NCBI GenBank assembly: GCA_024231955.1
Contig: JAAEPZ010000538.1
Location: forward strand, 435,340-499,339
Reading direction: 5' to 3'
DNA from: a bacterium
GTDB taxonomy: Bacteria; Krumholzibacteriota; Krumholzibacteriia; JACNKJ01
DNA length: 64,000 bases
Part shown: one piece after another, positions 1-28,012 of the stretch
Numbering within the stretch: the stretch's first letter is position 1
How the letters are laid out: every line of letters begins with the position of its first letter
Position numbers and translations under genes: made by a program
The notes under the pieces: generated by a model
What the model was told of the DNA's origin: nothing
The model's database searches: none
The model's input: only the letters and a program-made list of their open reading frames with translations

Positions 1-1591
1 CGTTCCGCTTTTTCGTCCCCTCGTCGAGTAGCGCGGCGGTGAGGGAGGCCGTGCCCGGCTTGTCGTCCGCGGCCCAGCCGCTCATGATCACGAGGTTGAT
101 GTCCACAAGCGGCAGATTGTGCTTCTCGACCAGGTAGAGTTCGAGGCCGTTGTCGAGTCGAGCCCTCTGGATCGAGGGGACGTTGAAATCCGACAGGGGG
201 CCATCCCCCGGCTTGACGCTACGGTCGAATTCCATCTCGGCGGCGCTGAGCGTGCCCTGGGGCAGCACGTGGATGATGACGCGCTGGTCCAGATGGAGAT
301 ACTCCCGCGCGTATCCCTGGATACCCTTGGTCGTGGCGTCACGGAAACGGGCCATGTCCCCGGCCAGATAGCCGGGATCGCCGGTCAGGGTGTTGTAGTT
401 GTTGAGGCGGTCGGCCTTGCCGCCGAAACCTCCGACCCGCTGCAGACTGCGGATGAAGTTCGCCTCAATCGTCGTCTTGGCCAGCTTCAGCTCACCCTTG
501 TTGATCCCCTTGTCGAAGATCTTCCGCAGCTCGGCATCGATCAGCTCCTCCAGCTCCTCGAGAGTGTGCCCCTCGGTGGGCGACGCCTCGATGATGTAGT
601 CGCCGGCCACCTCGCGCGACTCCTGGTAGGCATCCACATCCTGGGCGACCTGGAGATCGTAGACGAGAGTCTTGTAGAGGCGCGAGGTCTTGCCGCCGAC
701 CAGGATCTCGCTGAGGAGATCGAACTCGGCGTCACCGGGCTGATACCAGCCGGGCGTGTGCCAGGCCATGAACAGGCGGGGGACCTCGACGTTGTCCTCG
801 GCCACCATCCGCCGCACCTGGGTCAGACGGGGAACCCAGATCTCGGTGCGGTCGATCTTGCGGCCGGGGGGGAGCGTCGCGAAGTACTTGTCGATCCAGG
901 CCTTGACCTGCACGGGATCGAAGTCGCCCGCGACACAGAGCGATGCGTTGTTGGGCGCGTAGTAGAGACGGAAGAATTCCGACACATCCTCTTTGGACGC
1001 GGCGCCCAGATCCTCCATGCTGCCGAGCACCGTCCACGAATAGGGATGCTCGTTGGGGTAGAGCATGCCGGGGATCAGATCGTAGGCGACGTTGTAGGGG
1101 TTGTTCATCCCCTCGCGCTTTTCGTTGCGCACGACGTCCTTCTGGTTGGCCAGCTTCTCCTCGGTCATCGCGTCGAGCAGGAAGCCCATGCGATCGGCCT
1201 CCAGCCAGAGGGCCGTCTCCAGCTGATCGCTGGGCACGTTCTCCCAGTAGTTGGTGCGGTCCTCGGTCGTGGAGCCGTTGACTACGCCGCCCATCCGCTC
1301 GATCGGGTTGAAGTAGTCGTCGTCGTTGTTCTTGGAGCCCTGGAACATCATGTGTTCGAAGAGGTGGGCGAAACCCGTGCGGCCGGGCTTCTCGTTCTTG
1401 GAGCCCACGTGATACCAGATGTTCACCGAAGCCATCGGGATGCTGTGGTCCTCGTGCAGGATCACCTGGAGTCCGTTGTCCAGCGTGTATTTCTCATATT
1501 CGATCGTGAGTTCGTCCTGGGCCTGCGTCGCCGGGACGAAGATGCCCATACATACGAGCATCAGGATTACGGTTTTAGTGAATCGGATCAC
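1..1591 (-). CDS. M16 family (pitrilysin/insulinase-like) zinc peptidase, N-terminal ~530 aa; the C-terminus runs off the window start
   Basis: Reverse-strand translation from GTG at 1589-1591 (GGAGG 6 nt upstream) gives MIRFTKTVILMLVCMGIFVPATQA (signal peptide), then ...GRTGFAHLFEHMMFQGS..., the inverted zinc motif HxxEH of M16 peptidases. The frame stays open to position 1. It is absent from the ORF track because the ORF is open at the window edge. Track ORF 119..1621 + is its antisense shadow. Confidence 0.8.
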   Translation of the reverse strand, partial: MIRFTKTVILMLVCMGIFVPATQAQDELTIEYEKYTLDNGLQVILHEDHSIPMASVNIWYHVGSKNEKPGRTGFAHLFEHMMFQGSKNNDDDYFNPIERMGGVVNGSTTEDRTNYWENVPSDQLETALWLEADRMGFLLDAMTEEKLANQKDVVRNEKREGMNNPYNVAYDLIPGMLYPNEHPYSWTVLGSMEDLGAASKEDVSEFFRLYYAPNNASLCVAGDFDPVQVKAWIDKYFATLPPGRKIDRTEIWVPRLTQVRRMVAEDNVEVPRLFMAWHTPGWYQPGDAEFDLLSEILVGGKTSRLYKTLVYDLQVAQDVDAYQESREVAGDYIIEASPTEGHTLEELEELIDAELRKIFDKGINKGELKLAKTTIEANFIRSLQRVGGFGGKADRLNNYNTLTGDPGYLAGDMARFRDATTKGIQGYAREYLHLDQRVIIHVLPQGTLSAAEMEFDRSVKPGDGPLSDFNVPSIQRARLDNGLELYLVEKHNLPLVDINLVIMSGWAADDKPGTASLTAALLDEGTKKRN

Positions 1592-2049
1592 AACGTGCCT
1601 CCGGGCTGGGGGTTTTATTGAATGGATGAGGAACATACGGAGATAGGGTACTCCGGTTTCTATCCATCAGCTGGAGAGGGTGTTTTGGAGAGGGTGTGTC
1701 GATGGTCGAGGGCCTTGATGGGCATTCGACCTCCGCGGCGCCGGGCGATGCGCTCGCGGGAGTGCAGGGTCGCGGTGGGCGACCATGAGCGGATCATAGA
1801 GATTCTCGGAGCGGAGTGCAAAAGAAATCGGATGGGAGTCTGCGATTCGACAAGGGGCACCCTCATCCTGCTCCCGTCACGCCGCATTGGCAGGGCCCCC
1901 CGCTCGATCCCCTTGACCTCGTTGCGGCTCCCGATGTCGGCTATAGCGGGCTGCTTTCCCGAGATCCGAGCCCCCTTGAACAGCGATCCCGATTCTGTTA
2001 TTGTTGCTGCGTCAACATGGCAAGCCCTGACCAGAATCCGGGAGCACAA

Positions 2050-4293
2050 ATGTCATCTGATGCCGAATCCCCCAGGATCCGAAGATGGGAGACCCCGATC
2101 GTCTTCCATGACGAGCCGCTCCGTCATGCCGATGAAGCCTACTTCCGTTTCGACGAATACGCCACGACGCTGGCCCGTCTGATCGCGCGCAAGGACGCCC
2201 GCACGCCGATGGTGATTTGTATCGATGGTTCCTGGGGTTCCGGTAAAACCACACTGCTCCGTCGCCTCGAAAAGCAGCTTGGCACCGCGGCCGACTCCAA
2301 CGTTGCGGGCGATGTGCTGTTCCTTGATCCGGACGAACGGAATGGGAGCTTCTATCTCAACGAGTGGCGCCGTGTGCGCACCGTCCGGTTCGACGCCTGG
2401 AAATACTCCGGCGAGGATCAGTTGCTGGCGGCGCTGCTCCGGGTGATCCTGATGGAGATGAGTCGGACGGGGTCTTTTTGGGAGAAGGTCAAAGCCCGTC
2501 TCTCCGACGAGGGCAACAGGGGGATCGATCTCTTCGGCGGGATGCTCCACTGCGCATCGCAGGTCATCGGCAGGGTATTGCCCGATCTCGATCTCGAGAA
2601 GTTCGCGAAGGAGACGCCGCTGCAGGGGGCCACTGCCTTCTTCGATTACTTCCAAGTGGCCTTCAATCGTCTGATCGCCGGTTGGATCAAGGGGGAGATC
2701 GCCGATGAGGGGGGGATCGATGAGACCGCGGGGGTCATGGTGATCCTCGTGGATGATCTCGATCGATGCCTCCCCGCCAAGACGGTGCAGGTGCTTGAGG
2801 CGATCAAGCTCTTCCTGGATCAACCGGGCTGCGTCTTCGTCTTGGGCGCCGACACCGACATCGTGCAGCAGGCCGTCGAAAGCCACTACCGCAACACCGG
2901 CATCATGGAGAGGGCGGCCGGGGATTATCTCGACAAGATCATCCAGCTCCGCTTCCCGCTCCCGGCCATCGACGATCCTCAGATGCAGAGGTTCCTGGCC
3001 GACGAGGAGTTCGCCAGGATCGTCGGCGGGGGGCTGCTGGAGGACTGGGAGATTTTGATCGCCGGGGCGGACAACAATCCGCGCAAGGTCAAGGGGATCA
3101 TCAACGATCTCAACCTGCAGTGGGCCATGCTCGCCAACGCAGGGCAGGCCGACGGGGTGGAGCGCACCGATTTCCTCCGGCTGCAGATGCTGTTGCGGGC
3201 CGCGCCGACCGATTTCAGGAAGGATCTGCGTCGGTGGGGCGGCGAGAGACGGATGAACTACCTGAAGACGGTTTTCCAGGTCGTCAGGGGGAGGGCCTCG
3301 GATGCCGACCGGAAGAGCGTGGAGAAGCACCTGGAGGACTGGCGCTTTCGGAAGGTGTTCGAGACGCTCGCCACAGCTGGTTTCGAGGGCAGGATGGATG
3401 CGGCGCTCATCGAGACCTGCCTTTCGATGAGGAGCGTGGACAGCGCCGAGTCTCCGTCTGGCGATAAGCCGAAAACCCGACCCGGCGGTTGGATCAAGGG
3501 CCCGGATGGATCTGCTCCCCGGAGCGTCGAGACCGGAGCCGACAGCCGGTTTGTCGGCGACCTCGAGCTCCTCAGGGTGCCCGCCGGCGACTTCATCATG
3601 GGGAGCGAGACATCGAACGCAATGGCCGACAGCAATGAGCATCCTCAACATACGGTGACCTGCCTGGACAGAGACTACTGGTTGGCGCGCCATCCGGTGA
3701 CGAACCGGCAGTTCAACATCTACCTGGCGGCGGAGGGGCCGGAGGTTCTGAACCCCGTCTCCGACGACGACCTGCTGGATCACCCGGTTACAAACGTCTC
3801 CTGGCGGCAGGCCATGGCCTATTGCGAATGGCTGAACGGGATTGCGGCAAGCGCAGGTCTTGATTCCGGCAAAGAGCGGATCTCTCTGCCCAGCGAAGCG
3901 GAGTGGGAGAAGGCGGCGCGGGGCACACAGGCCAACGAGTGGCCCTGGGGCAACGAATTCGATGCCGGTAGAGCCAACTGTGCGGAGAATGGACCGAACC
4001 GGACAACACGGGTGGGAGCTTTCTCCCCGGACGGCGACGGGGTCTTCGGTCACGCTGATCTGAGCGGCAACGTTTGGGAGCTTACCCGGAGCTCCATGAG
4101 GGATTATCCCTATGACCCGGAGCCGGATCGTCCGGACAACCTGGACCTGGCCAAGGCCGACCAGTACGTTCTTCGCGGTGGCACGTTCTACGACATGGGT
4201 GAGAATGTGCGCTGCGCGCTCCGCGGCGGGAGCCTCGCTGGCAGTCGCACCAGGAACATAGGGTTTCGTGTTGTTTTGTCCCCGTTTCTCTGA
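2050..4293 (+). CDS. KAP family P-loop NTPase fused to a C-terminal FGE-sulfatase (SUMF1/formylglycine-generating-enzyme-like, FGS) domain
   Basis: Walker A MVICIDGSWGSGKTTLLRRL; KAP signature VMVILVDDLDRCLPAKTVQVLEAIKLFLD. A low-complexity linker is followed by FIMGSE...HPVTNVSWRQAMAYCEWLNG...LPSEAEWEKAARG...GNVWELT...YVLRGGTFYD...RCALRGG, typical of the FGE-sulfatase/DUF323 fold. Start chosen at ATG 2050 (GGGAG 8 nt upstream); the track ORF starts earlier at 1816 with no RBS. Confidence 0.75.
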   Translation: MSSDAESPRIRRWETPIVFHDEPLRHADEAYFRFDEYATTLARLIARKDARTPMVICIDGSWGSGKTTLLRRLEKQLGTAADSNVAGDVLFLDPDERNGSFYLNEWRRVRTVRFDAWKYSGEDQLLAALLRVILMEMSRTGSFWEKVKARLSDEGNRGIDLFGGMLHCASQVIGRVLPDLDLEKFAKETPLQGATAFFDYFQVAFNRLIAGWIKGEIADEGGIDETAGVMVILVDDLDRCLPAKTVQVLEAIKLFLDQPGCVFVLGADTDIVQQAVESHYRNTGIMERAAGDYLDKIIQLRFPLPAIDDPQMQRFLADEEFARIVGGGLLEDWEILIAGADNNPRKVKGIINDLNLQWAMLANAGQADGVERTDFLRLQMLLRAAPTDFRKDLRRWGGERRMNYLKTVFQVVRGRASDADRKSVEKHLEDWRFRKVFETLATAGFEGRMDAALIETCLSMRSVDSAESPSGDKPKTRPGGWIKGPDGSAPRSVETGADSRFVGDLELLRVPAGDFIMGSETSNAMADSNEHPQHTVTCLDRDYWLARHPVTNRQFNIYLAAEGPEVLNPVSDDDLLDHPVTNVSWRQAMAYCEWLNGIAASAGLDSGKERISLPSEAEWEKAARGTQANEWPWGNEFDAGRANCAENGPNRTTRVGAFSPDGDGVFGHADLSGNVWELTRSSMRDYPYDPEPDRPDNLDLAKADQYVLRGGTFYDMGENVRCALRGGSLAGSRTRNIGFRVVLSPFL

Positions 4294-4428
4294 GCTCCGG
4301 CAAGATCCCCGGGGCTCATCGCCACACCTGCACCCGCGACCCCTTTCGCCGGGCCTCCCGTTTGTGTAGATTGCCGCCGTCAACCGGCCGATCGGCCGAG
4401 CTCAGAGATCCAACAGAAAGGTCAGGCA

Positions 4429-5232
4429 ATGACGCTGGAAAAAGGGAAGGTTCAGAACATTCTGGTCATGGGCAAGAGCGGCGCGGGCAAGCAGCCCCGC
4501 ATCGACGTGCTGGTGGATGAGTTCGGCCTCGAGCAGCTTTCGACGGGGAATATCTTCCGCGACTATCTTGGTCAATACACCGCCATCGGATTCGAGGGCG
4601 ATATCGCGCAGTTCTTCGACGAGGCGCGGGACGCCTTCGTGGCCGACGACGAGATCAGGGCCGGCCTGGGCGACAAACTCACGGGCCACGACGCCGACGG
4701 CGTGCTGCTCGGCCTGAAGGCCAAGTACTTCATGGAGAGCGGCAAGTTCGTCCCCGACAGCATCACCAACGCGCTGTTCGAATCGTTCTTCGCCCGCTCC
4801 GGCTACAAGGGGATGGTCCTCGACGGCTACCCCCGCACACCGGACCAGTCCGCCTTCCTGCAGGGGCTCGTCGAGGGCAAGGGGACGAAGCTCGACGCCA
4901 TCGTGCTGGTGGATGGCGAGAACGACGCCATCGTCGCCCGCACCATCGGTCGCCGCATCTGCCCCGACTGCAAGAAGGTCTTCCACCTCGAATTCAAGCC
5001 CCCGCGGGACGGCAAGCTCTGCACCGAGTGCGGCGCAGAGGTCATCCTCCGCTCCGACGACTCCGAGGAGAAGATCAAATCGCGTCTGCAGGAGTTCCAG
5101 GACAAGGCCGTGCCCGCCATGGACGCGCTGACGGCCAAGGGGATCCCCGTGGCCACCGTGCCCGGCAACCTGCCCGTCTTCACCGATGAGGCCGTGCGCG
5201 CGAGCGTCATGGAGGCGCTGGAGAAACTGTAG
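4429..5232 (+). CDS. adk: Adenylate kinase family protein with a Cys4 zinc LID and a ~50-aa insertion
   Basis: ILVMGKSGAGKQ (P-loop), LSTGNIFRD, MVLDGYPRT, LID GRRICPDCKKVFH...KLCTECGAEVILRSDDSEEKIKSRLQEF. These align with the canonical ADK NMP-binding and LID segments. It is longer than the usual ~215 aa. Confidence 0.6.
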   Translation: MTLEKGKVQNILVMGKSGAGKQPRIDVLVDEFGLEQLSTGNIFRDYLGQYTAIGFEGDIAQFFDEARDAFVADDEIRAGLGDKLTGHDADGVLLGLKAKYFMESGKFVPDSITNALFESFFARSGYKGMVLDGYPRTPDQSAFLQGLVEGKGTKLDAIVLVDGENDAIVARTIGRRICPDCKKVFHLEFKPPRDGKLCTECGAEVILRSDDSEEKIKSRLQEFQDKAVPAMDALTAKGIPVATVPGNLPVFTDEAVRASVMEALEKL

Positions 5233-7079: not shown

Positions 7080-8909
7080 ATGAGACGGCATGTTCGAACC
7101 CCCTCCGTCAGGCTGATCCTGGTATCGCTGACGCTGATTCTGTTGACCGCCACCGCTTTCGCCCGCGTACCGGGCGAGCACTGGCGGATGTACGCCAATC
7201 CGGAAGACGCCGGCTTCTCGACCGCAAAACTGGCCGAGGCCAGGGCCTACTGGGAGTCCATCGATTCGGCGGCGGCCTTTCTGGTTTACGACGGCGCCGT
7301 CGTTGTCGCGTGGGGCGATTATGAGCGCCGCTTCCTGCTCCACTCCGCCCGCAAGAGCGTGATGAGCGGCGTCTACGGCATCCATGTGGATGCCGGGAAC
7401 ATCGACACCGAAAAGACACTGGCCGAGCTGGGTATCGATGACGAGAACTTCTCGCTCAACGACACCGAGAAGGGGGCGCGGATCATCGACCTGCTGCGCG
7501 CCCGCTCGGGGGTCTATCACTTCGCTGCGGCCGAACCCCGGCAGAATCCCAAACCCGAGCGGGGCGCCTACCCGCCGGGGGAGCACTGGTGCTACAACAA
7601 CTGGGATTTCAACGCGCTCTGCACGATCATCGAACAGGAGCTGGGGATCAGGTTCTTCGACGAGGTCGACAAGCGTTTCGCCAAGCCGCTGCGGATGGAG
7701 GATTACCATCCGCGCCACGGCATCTATCAGTTCGAGCCGGACATGTCGATTCACCCCGCCTATCACATCCGGATGTCCGCCCGCGATATGGCGCGCTACG
7801 GGTTGCTCTACCTGGAGGAGGGCAAGTGGGGCGGAAAACGGATTCTGTCCAAACAGTGGGTTGCGGACAGCTCCTACCCCTTCTCCGACGACGCCTGGGG
7901 CGACGGCTACGGTTACATGTGGTGGGTCTCTTTTCGGGAGGGGCTCAGGGAACTGGGAATGTATTCGGCGTTGGGCGTCGGCAATCAGTCCATAGACGTG
8001 ATTCCCGGCGCGGACATGGTGTTCATCAATCGCACCAATACCTTCATCGGCAACCGCGTCACCAATGATGAGCGCTGTCGGTTGATAGAGCTTCTGGTCG
8101 ACGCCCGCACCGGCAAGGCGAAGCGGCGACCCAGGCTGATCGATCTGCCCGTGATCGAGCGCGAACGGGAGGTGGTGGAGCTTTCTCTGGAGAGGAAGCG
8201 GGACATCCTCGAAGCCGACACCGGGACGGATCGCTGGAGCATCGTCCTGCAGGGGGAGGATCTCGTCTACCGCAACGGCGAGGAGACCATGGATCTGATC
8301 GCCCTGGCCGACAACGGATTGCTGATCGACGATACATTCGAGATGCTGTACATCGAGAACAGCGACGATGGCGCCGGGCTGAACATCATCAGCGAGGATC
8401 TCCTCAACGGACGCGGTTACGGGCTACTCGAAGAGGGGCATCCCGACGAGGCCATCGCCATGTTCAGGAGGGCGCTGGCCTACTACCCCGAGGCGACCAA
8501 CGTCTGGGACAGCCTGGCCGACGCCTACCTGGCCAAACAGGAATACGACAGGGCAATCGGATGCTTCGAGAAGATCCTGACCATCGATCCGGGCGATCGT
8601 CGCGCCGCCAGTCGGATAGCGGAGGTCGAACTCTGGCGCAACCCGGTCATTGTCGATGAGTCCGTGCTCGCAACCTACGTCGGCGAGTACGAGGATCTGC
8701 GGATCGATCTGGAGGATGACGGGCTGCATGCGACCCATATCCCAAGCGGTCAAAGTTTCGGGACGATGGCGCGGTCGGAGATCGAGTTCATCATCGTCGG
8801 AGTGGGCTTCTCCGCCCGTTTCGAAAAGGGTGACGACGGCATCGTGCGGAATATCACCCTTGTCTTTCCCGACGGTCGGGAACAGGTGCAGCAGAGGACG
8901 GCCGATTGA
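7080..8909 (+). CDS. Serine hydrolase of the beta-lactamase/transpeptidase-like family with C-terminal TPR repeats
   Basis: AAGGAGAA RBS before ATG 7080. Signal/TM segment LILVSLTLILLTATAFA. SxxK motif (HSARKSV). C-terminal TPR-like helices (AIAMFRRALAYYPEATNVWDSLADAYLAKQEYDRAIGCFEKILTIDPGD). Confidence 0.7.
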   Translation: MRRHVRTPSVRLILVSLTLILLTATAFARVPGEHWRMYANPEDAGFSTAKLAEARAYWESIDSAAAFLVYDGAVVVAWGDYERRFLLHSARKSVMSGVYGIHVDAGNIDTEKTLAELGIDDENFSLNDTEKGARIIDLLRARSGVYHFAAAEPRQNPKPERGAYPPGEHWCYNNWDFNALCTIIEQELGIRFFDEVDKRFAKPLRMEDYHPRHGIYQFEPDMSIHPAYHIRMSARDMARYGLLYLEEGKWGGKRILSKQWVADSSYPFSDDAWGDGYGYMWWVSFREGLRELGMYSALGVGNQSIDVIPGADMVFINRTNTFIGNRVTNDERCRLIELLVDARTGKAKRRPRLIDLPVIEREREVVELSLERKRDILEADTGTDRWSIVLQGEDLVYRNGEETMDLIALADNGLLIDDTFEMLYIENSDDGAGLNIISEDLLNGRGYGLLEEGHPDEAIAMFRRALAYYPEATNVWDSLADAYLAKQEYDRAIGCFEKILTIDPGDRRAASRIAEVELWRNPVIVDESVLATYVGEYEDLRIDLEDDGLHATHIPSGQSFGTMARSEIEFIIVGVGFSARFEKGDDGIVRNITLVFPDGREQVQQRTAD

Positions 8910-9849: not shown

Positions 9850-10088
9850 ACCTACAGGATACCCCGCTTTTCCGTAATGGCAAAGGGGGAATGCCTCCGA
9901 TCATTTGCCGGCGCCGGTTGGCGGGATTTGCCGTCCCGATGGTTGCGGTCGGCCATTAGTTCGTCACATTCTCTCTCCGTTCGTAGATTTGTAGTGATAA
10001 TGCCGGAGCATTTATTTACAGTGTTCCTGCAATATTACGGTAAGGGACCCATCGTGTATCTGCCTGGATCGGCTGCAGGGGGACTGTT

Positions 10089-10619
10089 GTGAGCAGAGTT
10101 AATCAGGTGACTTGGGACTGGAGATCCGCAAGCGTCGGCGGGAGCCGGAGCGTTGATCGGATCGGCGTAATGCGGCGCGCCGCACTGATTCAGGTTGTGG
10201 TCATGGGATTGGTCGGCGTGGTGCTCCACCTCCTGTTGCACCATATCCTCTTCGCCCGGATCATCTGGGGGCTGGCTGCGGTGATCCTGATTCTGGGATT
10301 GACTGCGCCGCGGCTCTACCGCCCGATATATCGGTTCGGTCACTGGCTGGGGCAACTGGTCGGCAAGCTCATGCTCTATGTTCTCCTGGTGCCGTTCTAC
10401 TTTGTCCTTTTCGTTCCGGTCAGTCTCTACCTCAAATTGCGCGGGCGGGATCCGCTGCAGCGCACTCGCCGCGAACCAGGCCTGACCTACTGGATTCCCC
10501 GGCGACCCAAGGCGCGGGACGCCAACATCGCGGATCAGTTCCTCCGCGAAGACAAAGCCGCCCGCAATCTGAACCGCCCCGAGGGCGCATCCGGCTTCGG
10601 CGAGGGTGGTGCATCATGA
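10089..10619 (+). CDS. SxtJ-like small integral membrane protein (carbamoyltransferase-associated)
   Basis: Three to four predicted TM helices. The stop overlaps the carbamoyltransferase start (ATGA). The start is uncertain: GTG 10089 (GGGGGA 6 nt upstream) or ATG 10170. Family assignment is by context and size only. Confidence 0.5.
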   Translation: MSRVNQVTWDWRSASVGGSRSVDRIGVMRRAALIQVVVMGLVGVVLHLLLHHILFARIIWGLAAVILILGLTAPRLYRPIYRFGHWLGQLVGKLMLYVLLVPFYFVLFVPVSLYLKLRGRDPLQRTRREPGLTYWIPRRPKARDANIADQFLREDKAARNLNRPEGASGFGEGGAS

Positions 10620-12445
10620 ACATACTCGGGATCTCCGCCTACTATCACGACTCCGCCGCCTGTCTGGTGCAGGACGGCAGCATCACCGCCGCCGCTCAGG
10701 AGGAGCGGTTCACCCGCCGCAAACACGATTCCGGCTTCCCCCTGAATGCCGTGCGCTATTGCCTGGCCGCAGGGGATGTCGGTGAGGGCCAGGTGGATGT
10801 CGTCGTGTTCTACGACAAGCCGCTCACCAAATTCAGCCGCATCCTGAAAACCAGTTTCGCCGTCGCACCCCGCGGGCTCGATGCCTATCTGATGGCCATC
10901 CCCCTCTGGTTGCGTGAGAAACTCTGGATTCCGGCCGACATCGAACAGGCCCTCGCCACGGCGGGCGCCGGCAAGCCGGGCAAACTCTGCTTCACGGAGC
11001 ATCACGAATCGCACGCCGCCGGAGCCTTCTTCCCCGGACCCTTCGAGAGCGCTGCCGTACTCACGCTGGACGGTGTGGGTGAATGGGCCACCAGTTCGCT
11101 CAGTCGGGGCGAGGGCAACCGACTGACCATGCTGGAGGAGCTGCACTTTCCCCATTCACTCGGACTGCTCTATTCGGCCTTCACCTATCACACCGGCTTC
11201 CGGGTGAACTCGGGCGAGTACAAGCTGATGGGGCTGGCGCCCTATGGACGGCCCGTCTACGCGGAGCGGATCCGCGAGCACCTCGTCGATATCCGCTCCG
11301 ACGGCTCCTTCCGTCTCAATATGGATTACTTCGGTTTTGCCGATAGCCTGACCATGACCAACGACCGCTTCTCCACAATGTTCGATGGTCCGCCGCGCGC
11401 GCCCGAATCGGATCTGACCCAGCGCGAGATGGATCTTGCCCGCTCCGTGCAGGTGGTCGTCGAGGAGATCGTCCTGTTGCAGGCTCAATACGCCGCCAGG
11501 GTGACCGGCGAGAAACGGCTCTGTCTGGCGGGCGGCGTGGCGCTCAATTGCGTCGCCAATGGTCGACTGCTGCGCGAGAGCCCTTTCGAGGAGATCTGGA
11601 TCCAACCCGCGGCCGGTGACGCCGGCGGCGCTCTGGGTGCGGCGCTGTACCACTGGCACCAGGTGCAGGATCAGCCGCGTGCGCTTCAAAACGGCGGCGA
11701 TGCGATGTCCGGCGCCTACCTGGGTCCGGCCTACGACGACGATGAGATCACGGCCTGGCTGGATGCTCAAAAACTGCCCTACCGCCGTTTGCCGGATGGC
11801 GATCTGGAGTGCGAAGTGGCGCGACTGATCGATGAGCAGAATGTCGTCGGCATGTTCCAGGGACGGATGGAGTTCGGCCCGCGGGCACTGGGCAACCGCT
11901 CGATTTTGGGCGATGCCCGTTCGCCGAAAATGCAGTCGGTGCTCAATCTCAAGATCAAGTACCGGGAATCGTTCCGCCCCTTCGCCCCCTCCTGCCTGGA
12001 GGAGCGGATCGGCGATTTCTTCGATATCGATCGGCCGTCACCCTACATGCTGCTGGTGGCCCAGGTGCGGCCGGAGCGCTGCCTGCGGCCCGAAGCGGGC
12101 GAGCGGGGGATTCATGAGATGGTGAACCAGGTGCGGTCGGACGTGCCGGCGATTACCCACGTGGACCACTCGGCGCGGATCCAGTCGGTGTCGCGGGAGA
12201 CCAATCCCCGCTACCACCGCATCATCAAGGAGTTCGAGAAGCGCACCGGTTTCGGGATCATCATCAACACCTCCTTCAATGTGCGCGGGGAGCCGATAGT
12301 CTGCACGCCGGAGGATGCCTACCGCTGTTTCCGCCGCACGGAGATGGACTACCTGGTGCTGGGCAATCAGATACTGGACAAAAGCGATCAACCGCAGTGG
12401 GCGGAGCGGGGCGAGGCCTGGCAGGAGGAGTTTCCACTCGATTAG
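10616..12445 (+). CDS. Carbamoyltransferase (NodU/CmcH/TobZ/SxtI family)
   Basis: N-terminus MNILGISAYYHDSAACLVQDGSITAAAQEERFTRRKHDSGFP is the family hallmark. Length 609 aa. Confidence 0.85.
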   Translation: MNILGISAYYHDSAACLVQDGSITAAAQEERFTRRKHDSGFPLNAVRYCLAAGDVGEGQVDVVVFYDKPLTKFSRILKTSFAVAPRGLDAYLMAIPLWLREKLWIPADIEQALATAGAGKPGKLCFTEHHESHAAGAFFPGPFESAAVLTLDGVGEWATSSLSRGEGNRLTMLEELHFPHSLGLLYSAFTYHTGFRVNSGEYKLMGLAPYGRPVYAERIREHLVDIRSDGSFRLNMDYFGFADSLTMTNDRFSTMFDGPPRAPESDLTQREMDLARSVQVVVEEIVLLQAQYAARVTGEKRLCLAGGVALNCVANGRLLRESPFEEIWIQPAAGDAGGALGAALYHWHQVQDQPRALQNGGDAMSGAYLGPAYDDDEITAWLDAQKLPYRRLPDGDLECEVARLIDEQNVVGMFQGRMEFGPRALGNRSILGDARSPKMQSVLNLKIKYRESFRPFAPSCLEERIGDFFDIDRPSPYMLLVAQVRPERCLRPEAGERGIHEMVNQVRSDVPAITHVDHSARIQSVSRETNPRYHRIIKEFEKRTGFGIIINTSFNVRGEPIVCTPEDAYRCFRRTEMDYLVLGNQILDKSDQPQWAERGEAWQEEFPLD

Positions 12446-12729: not shown

Positions 12730-13602
12730 ATGCCGCTAGCCTGGGTACGACTGATGCCGCTGCTGCTGTTGACGCTGCTCGGTTTGTTGCTGGCCGCCGC
12801 GCGACTGAGTCGCGGTCGATTCGTTCTGCCCGGCTACCTGGGCTACCTGTGGGCATTCCTCGTGGTATTCGCCATCGCGGATCACATCTCCTTCACGCCC
12901 GCCGTCTGGCTCATGGCCCTGATCTCCTTCCGCGCCCTGCGCGAATACTTCTCGCTGGTCGATCTCCGTCTCGAAGATCGCTGGGGGATGATCGGCGCCT
13001 ACCTCTCGATCCCCTTCATGATCCTGCTCATCCAGATCGACTGGTACGGCTTCTTCATCGTCTCCATCCCCGTCTACGCGTTCATCGTCATCCCCTTCCT
13101 CGTCGCTCTGGGTGACCGTGAGGGGCGCGGCAGCCTGCTGTCGATAGGCGCCATCGACTTCGGCCTCTTCTTCTTCGTCTACTGCCTGGGGCACATCGCC
13201 TATCTGGCCCTCTTCTCGACCTGGTTGACGCTGCTGCTGCTCCTGGGCGTCGTAGTGTGCAATGTCGCCATCTCACTGACTGCTCGCCTGGGCCGCATCC
13301 CCGGATTTCTGCTGGCGACCGCGGCCACGGTCGGGCTGTCTCTGCTCCTGCGCCCCTGGACCACGGTGCCCTTCGGCCCGAGTATCTTCGTCGGCGTATT
13401 GATCCCCGTGCTGGTGCACATGGGCGAGTATACGGTCGGCGTGCTGGAGCGGGACCTGGGGATCAGCTCGGATGACCTCGAGCCGGGGCGCGGGCATGTT
13501 CTCGATTCGATGAAGTCATATCTCTTCGCGGCGCCGATCGTTTTCCACTATCTGCGTTGGGTCATGAAATTCGGCGAATTGCTCCTCGGTCATGGCAACT
13601 AG
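12730..13602 (+). CDS. Phosphatidate cytidylyltransferase (CdsA/CTP_transf_1) family membrane protein
   Basis: Polytopic membrane protein whose C-terminal motif GRGHVLDSMKSYLFAAPIVFHYL matches the CdsA GHGGxLDRxDS..F segment. Confidence 0.7.
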   Translation: MPLAWVRLMPLLLLTLLGLLLAAARLSRGRFVLPGYLGYLWAFLVVFAIADHISFTPAVWLMALISFRALREYFSLVDLRLEDRWGMIGAYLSIPFMILLIQIDWYGFFIVSIPVYAFIVIPFLVALGDREGRGSLLSIGAIDFGLFFFVYCLGHIAYLALFSTWLTLLLLLGVVVCNVAISLTARLGRIPGFLLATAATVGLSLLLRPWTTVPFGPSIFVGVLIPVLVHMGEYTVGVLERDLGISSDDLEPGRGHVLDSMKSYLFAAPIVFHYLRWVMKFGELLLGHGN

Positions 13603-15031
13603 ACTCCGCAATCTCCCCCGGCTGCTGCTCCACCTTCTGGTGCTGCGGCCGCTGCTCCATCTGATCTTCGGACTCAGTGTGCGGGGGCAGGCAAACCTGC
13701 CCGAGCGGGGGCCGTTCATCCTGGCGGCCAACCACAACAGCCATCTGGATATCCTCATGCTCTGCGCCGCCCTGCCGGTGCGGTTGCTGGGGAGCACCCA
13801 TGTGGTTGCGGCTCGCGACTACTTCAGCCGTTTCCCCCGCCTTTTCGCGGTGATCGACTACCTGTTGCGGCCGGTCTGGGTGGACAGGGGGACCGGGGGC
13901 AAGGCGGCGCTGGAGAAGATGGGCGAACTCCTGGATCGGGGCGAGAATATCATCATTTTCCCGGAGGGCACCCGGGGCGAGGCGGGCAAGCTCGCACGGT
14001 TCCATTCGGGTGTGGGGCGGCTGGTCGTCACCCATCCGGAGGCGCAACTGGTGCCGGCCTTCCTGCTCGGCAGCGAGCGGGCGCTGCCCCGCAACACCGC
14101 CCTGCCGCTGCTGCTCTGGCACCATGTCAATATCGGTCCGCCGCAGTCGATCAGCGGCGATGGCGGGGATATCACGCAGGCGCTGCGCGAGAGCATCATC
14201 GACCTGGGCAGCTCCCGGACGGCCGCGCGGCACAGGAGGCGACCGGAGCGACGGAGAGGGCTAACCATAGCCGTATTGGGCATCGACGGCTCCGGCAAGA
14301 GCACCCTGTCGCGTCGTCTGTGCGCCGAGCTTTCGGTCGGAGGGGGTACCTGCCTGATCGGCGACAGCCTTGATCTTTACTCCGACGGCGAACCCCGCGC
14401 GGCGCAGCCTCTAGTGAAGGAGAAGCTGCGGCGCTGGATGAGCGCTCAGGCCAAGGATGCGAAATCGCTGGCTCGCTACAAGATTCCCAAGCTGGCCGAA
14501 CTGCTGCTTCGCGACGCGCTCCTCGGCGAGGCGAAACGGTGGTATGGTCCCGATCTGATATTCATGGACGGCTCGCCGCTGCTCAACATGACGGCCTGGT
14601 CCGTCCTCTACCGTCCCCAGCAGTTGAGCGTTGATTTCTGCGCCCGCGCCATGTCGATACTGGCCGGGCGGGGGAGTGTTCGCGATCCGCTCTACGCCGA
14701 GTTTCCCGAACTCCGTCACCTGCGGCGACTGGGGCTCACCCGTCTCAAGCTGCCCGACCTGATACTGTTCCTGGATGTCGATCCTGCGGTAGCCATCGAG
14801 CGGATCATGAGCAGGGGAGAGCGTGTGCAGGTGCATGAAACGGAGGAGAAGCTGGGCCGATTGCGCGAAGCCTACCTGCTGACGGTGCGGGCGGCCCGCG
14901 AGAAACTCGACCTGCCCGCCCATGTCATCGAGGGCGGCAGGGAGCCGGATGTCATAACCGCCGAGGCGCGTGGGCTGGTGACGGCTCTGCGCGCGGAGAG
15001 AGTGACCGCAAGCGAGGAGGTATCCAGGTGA
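13592..15031 (+). CDS. Fusion protein: PlsC-like lysophospholipid acyltransferase (N-terminal) plus thymidylate-kinase-like P-loop kinase domain (C-terminal)
   Basis: HX4D acyltransferase motif (ANHNSHLD) and FPEGTRG. Then AVLGIDGSGKSTLSRRL (Tmk-like Walker A). The start overlaps the CdsA-like gene by 11 nt. Confidence 0.65.
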   Translation: MATRLRNLPRLLLHLLVLRPLLHLIFGLSVRGQANLPERGPFILAANHNSHLDILMLCAALPVRLLGSTHVVAARDYFSRFPRLFAVIDYLLRPVWVDRGTGGKAALEKMGELLDRGENIIIFPEGTRGEAGKLARFHSGVGRLVVTHPEAQLVPAFLLGSERALPRNTALPLLLWHHVNIGPPQSISGDGGDITQALRESIIDLGSSRTAARHRRRPERRRGLTIAVLGIDGSGKSTLSRRLCAELSVGGGTCLIGDSLDLYSDGEPRAAQPLVKEKLRRWMSAQAKDAKSLARYKIPKLAELLLRDALLGEAKRWYGPDLIFMDGSPLLNMTAWSVLYRPQQLSVDFCARAMSILAGRGSVRDPLYAEFPELRHLRRLGLTRLKLPDLILFLDVDPAVAIERIMSRGERVQVHETEEKLGRLREAYLLTVRAAREKLDLPAHVIEGGREPDVITAEARGLVTALRAERVTASEEVSR

Positions 15032-16026
15032 GTAAGCCGATTGAGGTGATCGCGACTACGATCTCGGGATCGATAAGCGACTGGAGCAAAGTGGAGAGGG
15101 TGGAGCCTCTCTTCGCGGAGCATGGTTTCACCGACCTGCGTCTGCATGTCGTCGATACGCACCTGGCCGCGCGGGGCAAGGCGCTGGAGCTGCTGGGAGA
15201 GGGCAGCCGCCTGCTGATCTCCGCCGGCGGATCGGGCACGTTCAACGCCGTGCTGGAGGGGTGTTGCGATTCGGGGCTCCCGCTGGGCGACCTGCAGCTG
15301 GGCTTCCTCCGCAAGGGGTCGGCCGACCTGCTCGGGAAGGTGCTGGGGATGCCCGATGAAATCGAGGCGGCTGTGGCCGTTTTCGCCGAGGCGATTCGGG
15401 GGGGGCACGTCATGTCCTGCGATGTCCTGCAGGCCGTGAACGATGGCTCTCGCGGGTTGCCGCGTCATTTCGTCGGCTACGGCGGCGGTGAGATCTTCGG
15501 GCGGATTCCCCACTTCACGGAGAACCGGTTCATGAAGTGGTACAAGGGTGTGCTCAGTCAGGCCTTCGGCGATCTCGGCCCTTTCACCACCGGCATGACG
15601 CTGGCGCTGTGCGAGAAGATCCTGCGCGGACCGTTCGGGCGACGCGAGTGGCGGATCGAGATCGATGGGGCCGAGGCGACGCAGGGGCGCTACCAGGCGC
15701 TGATCATCGTCAACGGTTACCTGGGTCCCGACATGGGCTATTCGGACGACCCTCTCGGCTCCGGACGTTTCCATCTCTTCGCGCTGCGTGATCAGGGGAT
15801 CGGCCGTCTGCTCAAGCAGGCGGGCAAGGCGCGCAGCGGCGCGATCATGGAGAATCCCGAGCGGTGGGGTATGGAGCACTATGTCGTTGGCGACACGCTT
15901 CACCTGACCACCGCAAGTGAGCGGCCGTTTCCGCTCAACGTGGACGGCTCCACCCTCATCTGCGACCACGCGGCGACGATCCGCCTGGTGGACAGCATCA
16001 ACCTGATCGCCGCACCCGGCAGCTGA
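15028..16026 (+). CDS. Lipid kinase of the DAGK_cat (YegS/LCB5/diacylglycerol kinase catalytic domain) family
   Basis: GTG start with GGAGG RBS; 4-nt overlap with the upstream gene. Motif LLISAGGSGTFNAVLEG matches the GGDGT signature of DAGK_cat. Confidence 0.7.
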   Translation: MSKPIEVIATTISGSISDWSKVERVEPLFAEHGFTDLRLHVVDTHLAARGKALELLGEGSRLLISAGGSGTFNAVLEGCCDSGLPLGDLQLGFLRKGSADLLGKVLGMPDEIEAAVAVFAEAIRGGHVMSCDVLQAVNDGSRGLPRHFVGYGGGEIFGRIPHFTENRFMKWYKGVLSQAFGDLGPFTTGMTLALCEKILRGPFGRREWRIEIDGAEATQGRYQALIIVNGYLGPDMGYSDDPLGSGRFHLFALRDQGIGRLLKQAGKARSGAIMENPERWGMEHYVVGDTLHLTTASERPFPLNVDGSTLICDHAATIRLVDSINLIAAPGS

Positions 16027-16095: not shown

Positions 16096-16129
16096 TATGA
16101 CATATTCTCAATCAATCCAGGAGGCCTCC

Positions 16130-17152
16130 ATGAACGAGCAGCACCCTGACGGTATTCGCCCCGTATTCACCGCTCTTCTGATCCTGATCCTTGGACTGGT
16201 TCTGTCGCCGCAGTTCGCCGCCGCCGAATGGCGCGAGGGGGATTACAGGATCATGTCGCTCTCGGAGCTGTTGCCCCATCTAGGCGCGACCGCTTCCAGC
16301 GATCTGCCCGTCGATACGCCCGTGCTGCTGGCGCGGGGAACCGTTCCCGATGATATCGTCGCCATCCAGGGTGGGCTCGTGCGCAGCGGTCTGGCGCTGA
16401 AACCGACAGCGAGGGGGCGCGAGGTCGTCAGACCCGCTGTCGATGAGGCCGCCCGTGCGGCGGCGCGGCTGCTGGCCGTCACCCCCCTCCTGGTCAACAC
16501 GCGCGCCGAGGGTGTCATCGCCACAGGCGGCGCGGTGCTCTACGGACAGATTGTCGAGCCGCCCTACCTCGTCGAAAACGACGGCGAGGAGGTGCTGGTC
16601 AACGGTGTGCTGGTGTTCCCCTCTCCGGGCGTCCCTGTTGCGGTGCCCGCTGCGGATGCCGAGAGCATCCGGGAGTTCGAACTGGTGAAGACTGCGCGAA
16701 TGAGCTATCGCCGGGATCTGGAATCCCTGGGCGGCGAGGAGGCGCGCAGCCGCTTTCGCGAGACGGTGCTGACGCTTACCCATTTCGTGGAGGCCGAGTG
16801 GCGGAGTGAAAACTCCCTGCATGTCCTGCTCGCCAATGGCCAGCGCAAATCGATCATCATGTCCAACGTGGGGCGGGAGCCCGAGGAACCGACCTCCGCT
16901 CAGCTGAACGGGTATGGCGCGATGATGGCGCGCAATCTGCGCGAGATGCTCAGGCTGGATATGACCATTGTCGCCGGAGCCACCTACCTGATCTGCGAGG
17001 ACAACGCCTCGGGCGCGCACATGCGCGATCGTCTGCGGGAGGTTCTCGATTCCGTCGAGCCGGAGGCGCTGATTCTCGCGCGTCTGCAGGCTCGCCTCGG
17101 CAACAGGGCAGCCGCCGCCGATCTCTACTACTCGCACAGGGGGGGGAGGTAG
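16130..17152 (+). CDS. Hypothetical secreted/membrane-anchored protein
   Basis: ATG 16130 with AGGAGG RBS. N-terminal hydrophobic segment VFTALLILILGLVLSPQFAAA. No recognisable motifs. Its stop lies 4 nt before the next gene. Confidence 0.5.
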   Translation: MNEQHPDGIRPVFTALLILILGLVLSPQFAAAEWREGDYRIMSLSELLPHLGATASSDLPVDTPVLLARGTVPDDIVAIQGGLVRSGLALKPTARGREVVRPAVDEAARAAARLLAVTPLLVNTRAEGVIATGGAVLYGQIVEPPYLVENDGEEVLVNGVLVFPSPGVPVAVPAADAESIREFELVKTARMSYRRDLESLGGEEARSRFRETVLTLTHFVEAEWRSENSLHVLLANGQRKSIIMSNVGREPEEPTSAQLNGYGAMMARNLREMLRLDMTIVAGATYLICEDNASGAHMRDRLREVLDSVEPEALILARLQARLGNRAAAADLYYSHRGGR

Positions 17153-17155
17153 ATC

Positions 17156-20100
17156 ATGCGCAATCTAATCGGGATCGGCCTTTTGGCCCTGCTCATCTCC
17201 GTCCAGTTCGCACAAACCGCACTTGCCGGAGCCAATGAAACCCCCGGCAAGAATTATCAGCCGCACCGGTTCGGCAGCTTCCACGGGAACCTGTTCGAGT
17301 TCGGCTACCAGGATCTGCAGCTTTTCAAAATCCATGTCGTCGAGGATCAGCACTATCGCGTTGGAGCCTGTTACGCCGATTCCAAACGGGACAACTCCCC
17401 CGGCGGCGCCGGTCTGTTCAATTTTCAGGATTTCATCAGCGACAATAAGTACGATGTCATGTTGTTCACCTCCCATGGTACCGCGGATTGGGAAACGGTG
17501 ATCGAATTCTATGAATTCACCGCGCCCGGCTTTCTGATCCGCGCTCAGCAACTGGCGCTATATCACCTAATCTACGATCCCGATGAGGTCATTGCCGTGG
17601 ATGGGGAGGACTGGTTGGGGATCGCCGTCACGGAGAGCTTCTATGACAGGTTCATGAGGACCCCCGACGCCCTGGCCTGGTGGGCCTCCTGCTACTCGAT
17701 CGATATCGAACTGGTCGATCCGGGGCAGGCCCGGGCCTATGTCGGTTATGACGACTATGTCGTGAACATGAAGGTCAACTGCGATGAGCGGTATGTGCTG
17801 GGCCGGATGGACGGCCAGATGGGGCAGCAGTGGCGACCCCTGAAAAAGGCGATCGAGGGGGTCAACTCGCAATGTCCGCCCAACGACGCCTCTCTGGAGG
17901 CCCTGGGGAAGTTGAATACGACTCTCTCCCCCTCCGTGATCGAGTGGGAGCCTACCGGCGTCGTCTGCGTGGTCACGCCGGGACACGTCAAATTAGATAC
18001 GAGTCTCGACGTGAGCATCGATCCCCGTTCGGTGGTCAAGGCCTACGGGGACGCCGACCTCATCAACCATTCCTGGTCCGGCGACGACCGGATCGATTTC
18101 ACGGTCGTCCCGACCAGGCCCTATCCGAATATCGAGTACAGGGTCAAGGAGGCGAAGGCGGTAAGCAAGGCCGATCATGCCCGTCTGGACGGCAACACCT
18201 GGCCGGGGCCGCAGAACGCCTATGGTCCCAACCGCGACGACTTCGTCTGGAACACCACCTGCCCCGGCGGTTCCACACCGCCGTCGACGCCATCGACGCC
18301 GACGCCCGTATCCCCGCCGTCGACACCGACCACTCCGGGCGGCACCACCCGCGTGCCCACACCTGTCACCAACGGCGGGACCACCGATCAGGTGATCACC
18401 ATCACGCTTTACGATGTCCTGACCTGGTGCAGCAATCCCGACACCACGTTCCTCTCCCGCGGCGGCGGCAGCGACATCCTGTTCTGGGATTTCGAGGTGC
18501 CGACGGATGCGCTGCCGGGTACGATCAACACCTTCACCATCACAATCGAGGGGGAGGGTGAACCCTTCGTCGCCCACGGCGAGATCGTCGTGCCGAGTCT
18601 GGTGGCGGCCGCATTGCTGGACAACCCGGCGGTTCTCACCGGCCAGATCCAGGAGAAGAGATTGATTGTGGAGAACAACCGTGAGGTGCCGGTCGATGTC
18701 GATAACCTGACGCTGCTGAGCAGTGAACCGATCATGATCACCCCCGACCTGCCCGGCTTCACGCTGGAGGCGGGGGGGGAGATCGAACTGCTCCTGATGG
18801 TTGACGTCCCCCCGGGGCCCGACAATATGGTCTTCCCAGTTCAGGTGACTGCCGACCTGACCGGTGAAACCTGCGAGATCGGCGGCTTCGATCTCGTCAG
18901 CGGATTGACGATCGTGCTGCCCGGCCAGGACCTTGAGGTGCCCACGGGCTCTCCCGGTACTCCCCGGCCGCTGCCGATCGAGAACACCAGCGGAGTGCCG
19001 TTCGATGTGCAGGTCCTGGCCGTGGATTCGCACGGCTGGCCCGTCTCCGTGCCGCCGGCCCTGCCGCTGGGGCCATTGGAGACGGCCGAGATACCTCTCG
19101 GTTTGAGTGTTCCGCCCGATCCCCTCTTGATCGGTCAGACCGGCAATATCACTCTGGAGCTGGAGGATCCGATCCTGGCCTTGTCATCCACCCATACGAT
19201 CCACTATACGATCGGGCCGGCTCTGGAGATTGTCCTGGGGAGCAGACAGATGGAGAATGTCTATACGGGCTGCGCCGGTTGCCCATTTATGTGGCACCTG
19301 GACCTTCAAAACTCCTCAATCGAGATGATCGAAGGTGAAATCGAGTTGCTCATCGACAGCGGTGGAGCGTTGCCCCTTCTGGCACCCATACCCATCATGA
19401 TGGGACCCGGCGAAATATACCCATTCGATTTCGCACTGCCCGAATTGCCGCCGGGTTTCGCGCCGGGGCTCTACCCGGTGACGATTGAGGCCACGACATC
19501 AAGCGGACTCGGCGATTTCTCGCTGAATACGGAGATGAAGATCACCACACCGGTAACGGCTACCATGATCCAGCGAGCTGTCGCGGGCTATCCGGGCGAG
19601 GAGGCCGTCGTCTCCGCCGTGATCGGGAATCAACGTTCCGACATGCCCATGAACGGCGAGTACGAGATAACGGACTCGATGGGTTGGCTGCCGGAACCGG
19701 TTCTAGGCATATACGATTTCGAGCCGGAGGGCTTGGAAACCCTGGATGTCTTTTTGAGTCCACCGCCCAGGGGGGCGCTGGATTCGACCGAGGTCACGTT
19801 GCGTATCACCATGCTGGATGATTTCGGCGGTCTGCTGGAGGATATGGCGTCAACCTGGCTGAAGGTTTTCGAGGAGCCTGTCGGTATTGAGGATGGTCCG
19901 CCGCCGGCCCACACGGATCTGATGGGCAACTATCCCAATCCGTTCAATCCGCGTACATCCGTCGAGTTCAACCTGGAGCGTGCCGGGGATATTCGGCTGA
20001 GTGTCCACGATGTGGCCGGACGGGTGGTCTCGGTGCTCCACGAGGGCTACGCCGGGGCCGGACGGCACAGTCATATCTGGGAGGGTATGACGGACGACGG

Positions 20101-26307: not shown

Positions 26308-26310
26308 GAC

Positions 26311-27960: not shown

Positions 27961-28012
27961 ATTTGGAAACCCCTATTAGATGGCTTGTAAGGTTCGTTTA
28001 ACCGGATGCTTG

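Follow-up and report, generated by a model that had tools for sequence, protein, structure and literature searches.

A KAP NTPase fused to an FGE-fold lectin domain in a Krumholzibacteriota contig: a member of a family targeted by diversity-generating retroelements, with no retroelement detected within 64 kb

The stretch of DNA considered here, 64,000 nucleotides of contig JAAEPZ010000538.1 from a bacterium of the Krumholzibacteriota (the window; positions without a locus name count from its first letter), carries near one end a gene whose product joins a KAP family P-loop NTPase to a C-terminal domain of the FGE-sulfatase fold. Judged from sequence comparison, the family of this KAP-FGE protein is a target family of diversity-generating retroelements (DGRs) in which the variable region (VR) consists of the last ~25 residues, and the C-terminal domain is a non-enzymatic C-type-lectin scaffold for ligand binding, of the kind that DGRs diversify. 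We consider it probable that the protein is a soluble cytoplasmic sensor NTPase of the class called NTPase-FGS, a KAP switch joined to a lectin with a DGR-type VR, the specificity of this copy being most likely frozen and the output being borne by the KAP module. A preliminary description of the same DNA had recognised the fusion and named it a candidate conflict- or defence-type sensor; the identity of the C-terminal domain as a DGR variable protein is the key feature that it missed.

The assignment to a DGR target family rests on homologs and on what lies beside them. At loci L007 and L008, which carry homolog P0015, a reverse transcriptase (RT) gene of the RVT_1 family comes directly after the KAP-FGE gene and is itself followed by a bAvd gene, and at L007 the terminal 135 nt of the KAP-FGE gene (10084-10218) recur immediately beyond bAvd (11725-11859). 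All 18 of the 18 mismatches in the L007/L008 repeat lie at adenines of the downstream copy, the template repeat (TR). TR, VR and adenine mutagenesis together are the diagnostic signature of a DGR. The same comparison of TR with the KAP-FGE 3' end places 18 of 20 mismatches at TR adenines at L090 and 16 of 21 at L140, and the counts at L216 and L218 are 15 of 15 and 19 of 22; more distant KAP-FGE genes give 12 of 12 (L024) and 18 of 18 (L073), and a cassette with the adenine-specific pattern is also seen at two further distant loci, L155 and L157. Wherever a close-family locus has a DGR, the RVT_1 and bAvd cassette stands immediately 3' of the KAP-FGE gene.

Traces of the same process are found in the proteins. 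Within three clusters formed at 90% identity the differences are concentrated in the 24-residue VR of a protein of ~750 residues, with 13-14 of 13-15 differences falling there in the P0110 cluster, 11-13 of 13-18 in the P0111 cluster and 11 of 13 in the P0046 cluster, and both of the clusters whose loci were retrieved have intact adjacent DGRs. Codons of the VR end in a pyrimidine (NNY) at a frequency of 0.82 in DGR-linked genes, 0.89 in genes beside a DGR relic and 0.76 in DGR-less genes, compared with ~0.52 in the rest of the genes, an excess in the variable codons that we read as the footprint of AAY template codons.

The retroelement is not a constant companion of its target. Thirteen close-family loci were sampled regardless of DGR, each with at least 3 kb of flank, and the cassette is intact at three, present as a relic at two and absent from eight. 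The relics are frame-broken RT fragments directly 3' of intact KAP-FGE genes, at L009 (10269-10556, RT residues ~1-80, E=7e-14) and at L003, also L004 (10269-10609, E=9e-12), and they indicate that the cassette decays in place and that the target gene survives; at L009 an Avd-like gene (7534-7890) is still present upstream. On a neighbour-joining tree the DGR states are interspersed, which indicates repeated loss or relocation, and the window protein forms the deepest branch. As a separate observation, a second, FGE-only gene lies 3' of the DGR cassette at L007 (12958-13908) and at L090 (12048-13061); patches of its core share 75-98% identity with the lectin domain of the KAP-FGE protein, its 3' end is a poor match to the TR (~61%), and it may be a former or alternative DGR target.

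The gene in the window and the spacer that follows it are divided as follows.

2050-4293, forward strand: complete KAP-NTPase / FGE-fold (C-type lectin) fusion gene, from the open reading frame (ORF) and its translation.
2050-2148, forward strand: N-terminal 33 residues, with the motif ETPxxxHDxPL kept in the family (alignment, Pfam, AlphaFold2).
2149-3114, forward strand: KAP family P-loop NTPase domain, residues 34-355 (Pfam PF07693).
2227-2253, forward strand: Walker A motif GSWGSGKTT, residues 60-68, read from the sequence.
2743-2769, forward strand: Walker B region ILVDDLDRC, residues 232-240, read from the sequence.
3115-3441, forward strand: all-helical region after the NTPase core, residues 356-464 (AlphaFold2, alignment).
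3442-3537, forward strand: disordered, poorly conserved linker, residues 465-496 (AlphaFold2, column entropy).
3568-4275, forward strand: FGE-sulfatase / C-type-lectin fold domain, residues 507-742, judged non-catalytic (Pfam PF03781).
4189-4260, forward strand: VR-equivalent segment, residues 714-737, YDMGENVRCALRGGSLAGSRTRNI (column entropy, L007 TR).
4294-4428, forward strand: 135-bp spacer at the place of the RT gene in DGR-bearing relatives (RT, Avd and TR searches).

The VR-equivalent segment was delimited by column entropy in a 40-sequence alignment. Its 17 hypervariable columns correspond to window residues 714-719, 724, 726-729, 731-732 and 734-737, with entropies of 2.7-3.4 bits against averages of 1.46 bits for the KAP domain and 1.35 bits for the FGE core, and these 17 positions fall exactly on the adenine-containing codons of the L007 TR. 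They are set in a scaffold frame, RGG...R.A.R...P..R....GFR, whose columns R709, G710, G711, R721, A723, R725, P730, G738, F739 and R740 stay below ~1 bit and whose R733 reaches ~1.6 bits. A C-terminal VR scaffold on a C-type-lectin fold, homologous to the proven VRs, is therefore present in the window protein.

The ORF begins with ATG at 2050, a start consistent with the family alignment, and ends with the stop codon at 4291-4293. Its 747-residue product is identical to NCBI MCP4547690.1, which is encoded on an 856,869-bp contig of a metagenome-assembled genome (MAG) and recorded as 'MAG: SUMF1/EgtB/PvdO family nonheme iron enzyme [bacterium]', and it can be aligned end to end with 39 homologs of the same architecture at 39-46% identity. 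The two halves named in the preliminary description were both recovered by profile search, KAP_NTPase (PF07693) at residues 34-355 with E=1.4e-43 (149.7 bits against a cutoff of 20, profile positions 1-287 of 293) and FGE-sulfatase (PF03781) at residues 507-742 with E=1.1e-44 (153.4 bits against a cutoff of 23.3, profile positions 5-254 of 255), so that the second domain is complete, as had been said. Both diagnostic motifs of a KAP NTPase, Walker A (GxxGxGKT) and Walker B (hhhhDDxD), are intact; the GSWGSGKTT and DDLDRC stretches noted earlier hold residues that are invariant across 40 family members, namely G60, W62, G63, G65, K66 and T67 in the first and D235, L237, D238 and C240 in the second. 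Other P-loop families, nSTAND_NTPase5 and NACHT, gave only sub-threshold matches in the Pfam scan.

On the N-terminal side of the NTPase, residues T15, P16, D21, P23 and L24 are invariant or nearly so in the family; Pfam finds no domain in these 33 residues, residues 11-30 are modelled without secondary structure at a predicted local distance difference test score (pLDDT) of ~80-85, and the segment is too short for an effector or adaptor domain. The AlphaFold2 model, run on the 40-sequence alignment, has a mean pLDDT of 81.3 and a well-folded C-terminal domain; helices occur within residues 344-459 (pLDDT ~82-92), a region in which the family keeps the motif NPRKVK...N..L.W. The linker announced in the preliminary description lies at 465-496, where pLDDT is below 50 and column entropy is 2.64 bits, against 1.35-1.46 in both domains. 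Transmembrane helices inserted in the NTPase domain are typical of many KAP members, if not universal. In the window protein there are none, the highest 19-residue Kyte-Doolittle mean being 1.34, and since no hydrophobic segment reaches transmembrane-like values we class it as a soluble KAP, predicted to be cytoplasmic.

The KAP half matches three PADLOC defence profiles, PifA (7e-33), QatA (1e-29) and PDC-S20 (5e-26), the PifA match running from residue 108 to 429 over profile positions 71-376 of 720 and leaving the C-terminal half of PifA unmatched; no relative of the KAP half with a solved structure turned up in a sequence search of the PDB. The PDB sequence matches of the C-terminal domain include ToxD, CalU17, PorK, FGE, PvdO and TvpA, and the top Foldseek matches in the PDB, with E between 1e-14 and 1e-11, are all of the FGE fold (ToxD, CalU17, FGE, PvdO and TvpA).

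The same fusion is widespread in other genomes. A homolog search over 5.8 billion proteins gave 915 matches at E<=1e-10, the best 120 of which are all full-length KAP plus FGE proteins at 38-45% identity, mostly from MAGs of Anaerolineae and other Chloroflexota, and cluster representatives, searched exhaustively with phmmer, yielded 1,990 matches at E<=1e-30. A profile scan of genome contigs with the full-length alignment returned, among the matches listed, mostly FGE-only loci; metagenome contigs were scanned with a KAP-only alignment; and on IMG/VR viral contigs each match covers the KAP part alone or the FGE part alone, at loci that were not inspected for the other domain. Some relatives (P0084, P0087) carry an N-terminal TIR_2 domain (TIR-KAP-FGE, 915-1059 residues; L005 8001-10748 and L006), and thus have an effector-NTPase-sensor layout as in NLR-like immune proteins. 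Just 5' of the TIR-KAP-FGE gene of L005 lies a separate 85-residue ORF (7696-7953) with a KAP_NTPase fragment.

No component of a DGR was detected around the window copy. Searches by tblastn with the RT and Avd of L007 over the whole 64-kb window gave chance-level matches only; a profile hidden Markov model of eight DGR RTs, run with --max, had no match in the six-frame translation of the window; blastn of the VR region (4101-4300) over the 64 kb found chance-level matches and no TR; and a scan of the window for adenine-biased self-repeats found no TR, with all positive controls recovered. The window copy most likely has a frozen, germline-encoded specificity that dates from the loss of its DGR, and we think this somewhat more likely than the alternative in which the gene is still an active target, a DGR at another place on the 857-kb contig or in the genome retrohoming in trans into 4189-4260 and the protein being hypervariable in the population.

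That alternative, which we regard as rather doubtful, would agree with loci at which one DGR has several or remote targets (L041, L049, L059 and L073, each with one TR that matches two or three VRs, at distances of up to ~9.4 kb), a pattern that shows multi-target, non-adjacent DGR action among FGE-type targets, and with the fact that the DGR-less copies as a class keep the NNY signature (0.76 against 0.52). It is hard to reconcile with the position of the cassette immediately 3' of the gene in every close-family DGR case and with the RT relics, which indicate decay in place; moreover, no TR-like sequence occurs in the 60 kb downstream or the 2 kb upstream of the window gene, the window VR includes the non-NNY codons ATG, GAG, GGG, AGG and ATA, and the protein is represented by one sequence only among 15 billion proteins, so that no variants of it are known.

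The frozen state may also be old. The closest homolog, P0002 (L001, 45% identity), likewise has no DGR, and its gene stands beside an M16 zinc peptidase gene whose product is 59% identical to the M16 neighbour of the window gene, which suggests long vertical retention of a DGR-less copy. We accordingly put forward, tentatively, the wider possibility that the window copy and the cassette-less majority of the family are former DGR receptors whose specificity was frozen when the retroelement decayed and which have since passed through long vertical descent.

Fusions of this kind are not new. Kaur, Iyer, Burroughs and Aravind (eLife 2021, PMC8195603) described NTPase-FGS systems in which an NTPase (STAND, KAP or AP-GTPase) precedes an FGS domain at the C-terminus, Doré et al. 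(PNAS 2024, PMC10907252) linked the KAP-FGS class to DGR clade 5D targets, and both papers treat KAP-FGS fusions as NTP-dependent conflict systems, as the preliminary description had said. The DGR-linked KAP-FGS class is thus already known, from computational work only, and the window gene is a new member of it, without an effector and without a local DGR. Its product shares with these systems the order of KAP before a single C-terminal FGS/C-type-lectin domain with a VR scaffold, the association of the family with DGRs, the enrichment in filamentous Chloroflexota and the predicted cytoplasmic location, but it lacks an N-terminal effector or effector-associated domain as well as a partner effector gene, and the 64 kb contain none of RT, Avd and TR.

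Among individual proteins, TvpA, the DGR variable protein of Treponema denticola (PDB 2Y3C), has the same FGE-type C-type-lectin fold with a C-terminal VR and matches the window protein both in sequence (E=3.3e-8) and in Foldseek (E=9.5e-12, TM(target) 0.69). TvpA is a surface lipoprotein without an NTPase, whereas the window protein is predicted to be cytoplasmic and is fused to a KAP NTPase. PifA, which mediates exclusion of T7 by the F plasmid, acts as sensor and effector in a single protein. The KAP core and helical region of the window protein match the PADLOC profiles of both PifA and QatA, but the similarity is confined to the KAP module, neither protein has an FGE/C-type-lectin domain or a link to DGRs, the NCBIfam QatA match is partial (124 bits against a cutoff of 600), and the window has no QatB, QatC or QatD neighbours. 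Avs and other NLR-like STAND proteins of bacteria would be comparable in combining an NTPase switch with a C-terminal variable sensor, and some KAP-FGE relatives add a TIR effector; in the window protein, by contrast, the NTPase is a KAP, the sensor has a DGR-type lectin fold instead of TPR or other repeats, and there is no effector.

From these comparisons a mechanism can be proposed. Where family members keep RT, bAvd and TR downstream, adenine-specific mutagenic retrohoming rewrites their VR codons. A ligand would bind the lectin domain at the VR surface, where the 17 specificity positions sit on an invariant frame. By way of the flexible linker, binding may make the KAP module, with its intact Walker A and B motifs, switch or oligomerise in an NTP-dependent manner. 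The output would probably be an abortive-infection or growth-arrest response of the KAP module itself, as in single-protein systems of the PifA type; we propose this because the window protein, unlike its TIR-bearing relatives, has no fused effector. A role of the window protein as a sensor in defence or conflict, which is what the preliminary description had suggested, is inferred by homology: its architecture does place it in the conflict-system class, but the gene lies in no defence island, its product has no N-terminal effector, and no DGR was found within the 64 kb.

Several observations weigh against the picture of a DGR-derived immune sensor. An intact adjacent DGR occurs in only 3 of the 13 unbiased close-family loci, and in the window RT, Avd and TR are absent by all four kinds of search. 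The NNY bias of the window VR is weak (12 of 18 codons, with a background of 0.53) and alone is not significant. PADLOC finds no defence gene among ten neighbours, and there is no mobile-element context and no effector or adaptor domain. Ligand, output and NTP dependence are all inferred, KAP-FGS proteins being still without experimental characterisation. Finally, vertical retention beside the same M16 gene is as compatible with a housekeeping sensor as with an immune one.

The last point bears on the two genes that flank the KAP-FGE gene, which are as the preliminary description had them.

1-1561, reverse strand: 5' part of an M16 zinc peptidase gene that diverges from the KAP-FGE gene and whose product has an N-terminus resembling a signal peptide (translation).
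4429-5232, forward strand: adenylate-kinase-like gene, 267 residues (Pfam ADK 2.7e-26 in two stretches, ADK_lid 1.1e-11).

The window M16 is 59% identical over 503 residues to the M16 beside P0002 (L001 11503-14241), with the relative orientation of the KAP-FGE gene inverted, and the shared neighbour could be conserved synteny or coincidence; in L001 an IS200/IS605-type Y1 transposase lies between the M16 and KAP-FGE genes. A housekeeping or regulatory NTPase that senses a ligand for signal tuning or for surveillance of the envelope or of proteostasis, possibly linked to M16 and not directed at invaders, would suit a gene that stands among housekeeping genes, with an M16 ortholog beside its closest homolog and another M16 gene beside the homolog at L009; a proposal that DGRs tune regulatory proteins in cyanobacteria is contained in PMC7517822. 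We nevertheless judge it improbable, for the M16 has a signal-peptide-like N-terminus and the KAP-FGE protein is predicted to be cytoplasmic, the window and L001 do not share the same orientation of the gene relative to M16, the M16 at L009 is no ortholog of the window M16 (21% identity, E=0.001), ten other loci have no M16, and the TIR-fused relatives as well as the KAP matches to PifA, QatA and PDC-S20 point to conflict functions. On the first four of these grounds M16 is an unlikely functional partner and probably not part of the KAP-FGE system, and the adenylate kinase was rejected as a partner since it is absent from all homolog neighbourhoods examined.

There remains the catalytic function that the names of these proteins imply. 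Homologs are entered in databases as 'gamma-glutamyl hercynylcysteine S-oxide synthase', 'Hercynine oxygenase', 'iron(II)-dependent oxidoreductase' and 'formylglycine-generating enzyme', and besides the strong Pfam FGE-sulfatase match there are partial NCBIfam matches to EgtB (71 bits against a cutoff of 360, profile positions 273-412 of 413 only, the C-terminal lectin-fold part), SenA (56 bits against 420, again only the C-terminal part of the profile), PvdO (50 bits against 500, though most of the profile is spanned) and GldK (also far under its cutoff). Human FGE aligns with the C-terminal domain at about 30% identity over 205 residues; in the SUMF1 sequence used we take ..GGSYMC336HRSYC341YRYRC.. 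to be the catalytic loop, and the numbering is corroborated by the titles 'C336S mutant' and 'C341S mutant' among the Foldseek matches in the PDB. This loop aligns to the first block of the VR, where C336 falls in a 3-residue gap of the window protein and C341 stands opposite Gly or Met. The preliminary description had remarked that the domain has few cysteines and might be a non-catalytic binding domain, and it holds only C538, C592, C644 and C722, of which the scaffold residue C722 is the sole cysteine in the segment concerned; the catalytic, Cu-binding pair of a SUMF1-type FGE (C336 and C341, located behind a GGS[YW] motif) has no equivalent. Nowhere is the family less conserved than at the position of the catalytic loop, a pattern that an active site would not allow. 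SUMF1-type FGE and the EgtB/OvoA sulfoxide synthases thus share a common fold with the domain, which differs from them in having no catalytic Cys pair, Cu site or DinB domain and a hypervariable VR in place of the catalytic loop.

A catalytic SUMF1/EgtB/PvdO-type enzyme (FGE, sulfoxide synthase or 'iron(II)-dependent oxidoreductase') under ATPase control is accordingly largely refuted and retains hardly any probability, since the NCBIfam scores lie 4-10 times under their cutoffs and for EgtB and SenA cover lectin-fold parts only, Pfam finds no DinB or iron-binding N-domain in the protein, the Cys336/Cys341 loop is replaced by a hypervariable segment, and neither the window nor the homolog neighbourhoods inspected contain sulfatase or ergothioneine genes. 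A sulfatase-maturation operon, which the preliminary description had named as the context that would speak against its reading, was found in none of the homolog neighbourhoods examined. The catalytic database names given to family members are probably wrong, the domain appearing to be a non-catalytic lectin of DGR type.

The remaining 60 kb around the gene is ordinary chromosome, with an arginase-family enzyme, a carbamoyltransferase, lipid-metabolism genes, multihaem cytochromes, a Ser/Thr kinase with TPR, two-component systems, RND efflux, ThiI and beta-oxidation genes, and an FG-GAP protein is also among the neighbours. There are no QueC or TatD-like neighbours beside the gene, Rfam has no match in the window, and a scan of 1500-4500 for promoters and terminators gave nothing above shuffle expectation. 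In the adenylate-kinase-like protein the ADK match is split and the lid intact, which indicates an insertion or extension relative to the canonical Adk of ~215 residues.

Some genes further along the window may be of interest in their own right. At 13592-15031 (forward strand) a single gene joins a PlsC-type acyltransferase to a thymidylate-kinase-like P-loop domain, which gives a weak PADLOC match to VakA (4e-7); the fusion is flanked by a CTP_transf_1 gene (CdsA-like, 12730-13602) and a gene with a diacylglycerol-kinase catalytic domain (15028-16026), and together they form an unusual lipid-metabolism cluster. A protein of 351 residues without a Pfam match (16097-17152, forward strand) precedes one of 1008 residues (17156-20182, forward strand) whose sole Pfam domain is a C-terminal FlgD_ig-like module that may be a secretion or sorting tag. 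On the reverse strand, a 946-residue protein (20200-23040) combines an anti-sigma-like zf-HC2 domain, a Ser/Thr kinase and a long TPR array, and the adjacent FHA plus HATPase_c protein (23170-24816) makes the two resemble a phospho-signalling pair. Lastly, a 697-residue forward-strand ORF without a Pfam match (25897-27990) overlaps reverse-strand ORFs of 549 and 252 residues.

For the family, the first consequence is one of annotation: 'SUMF1/EgtB/PvdO nonheme iron enzyme', 'hercynine oxygenase' and 'iron(II)-dependent oxidoreductase' mislead for hundreds of such proteins. The window gene joins the DGR-target NTPase-lectin receptors, a proposed bacterial analogue of hypermutating immune receptors, and as a single copy it adds no new principle. 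If its frozen state is real, it would be a bacterial case of an 'adaptive' hypermutating receptor turned into a germline-encoded 'innate' one, and a KAP NTPase without a separate effector would be sufficient as the output module. The most interesting by-product at the level of the family is a natural series of loci, the DGR being intact at some, decayed to an RT relic at others and missing from the rest, along which the fate of a hypervariable receptor after the loss of its diversifier could be followed.

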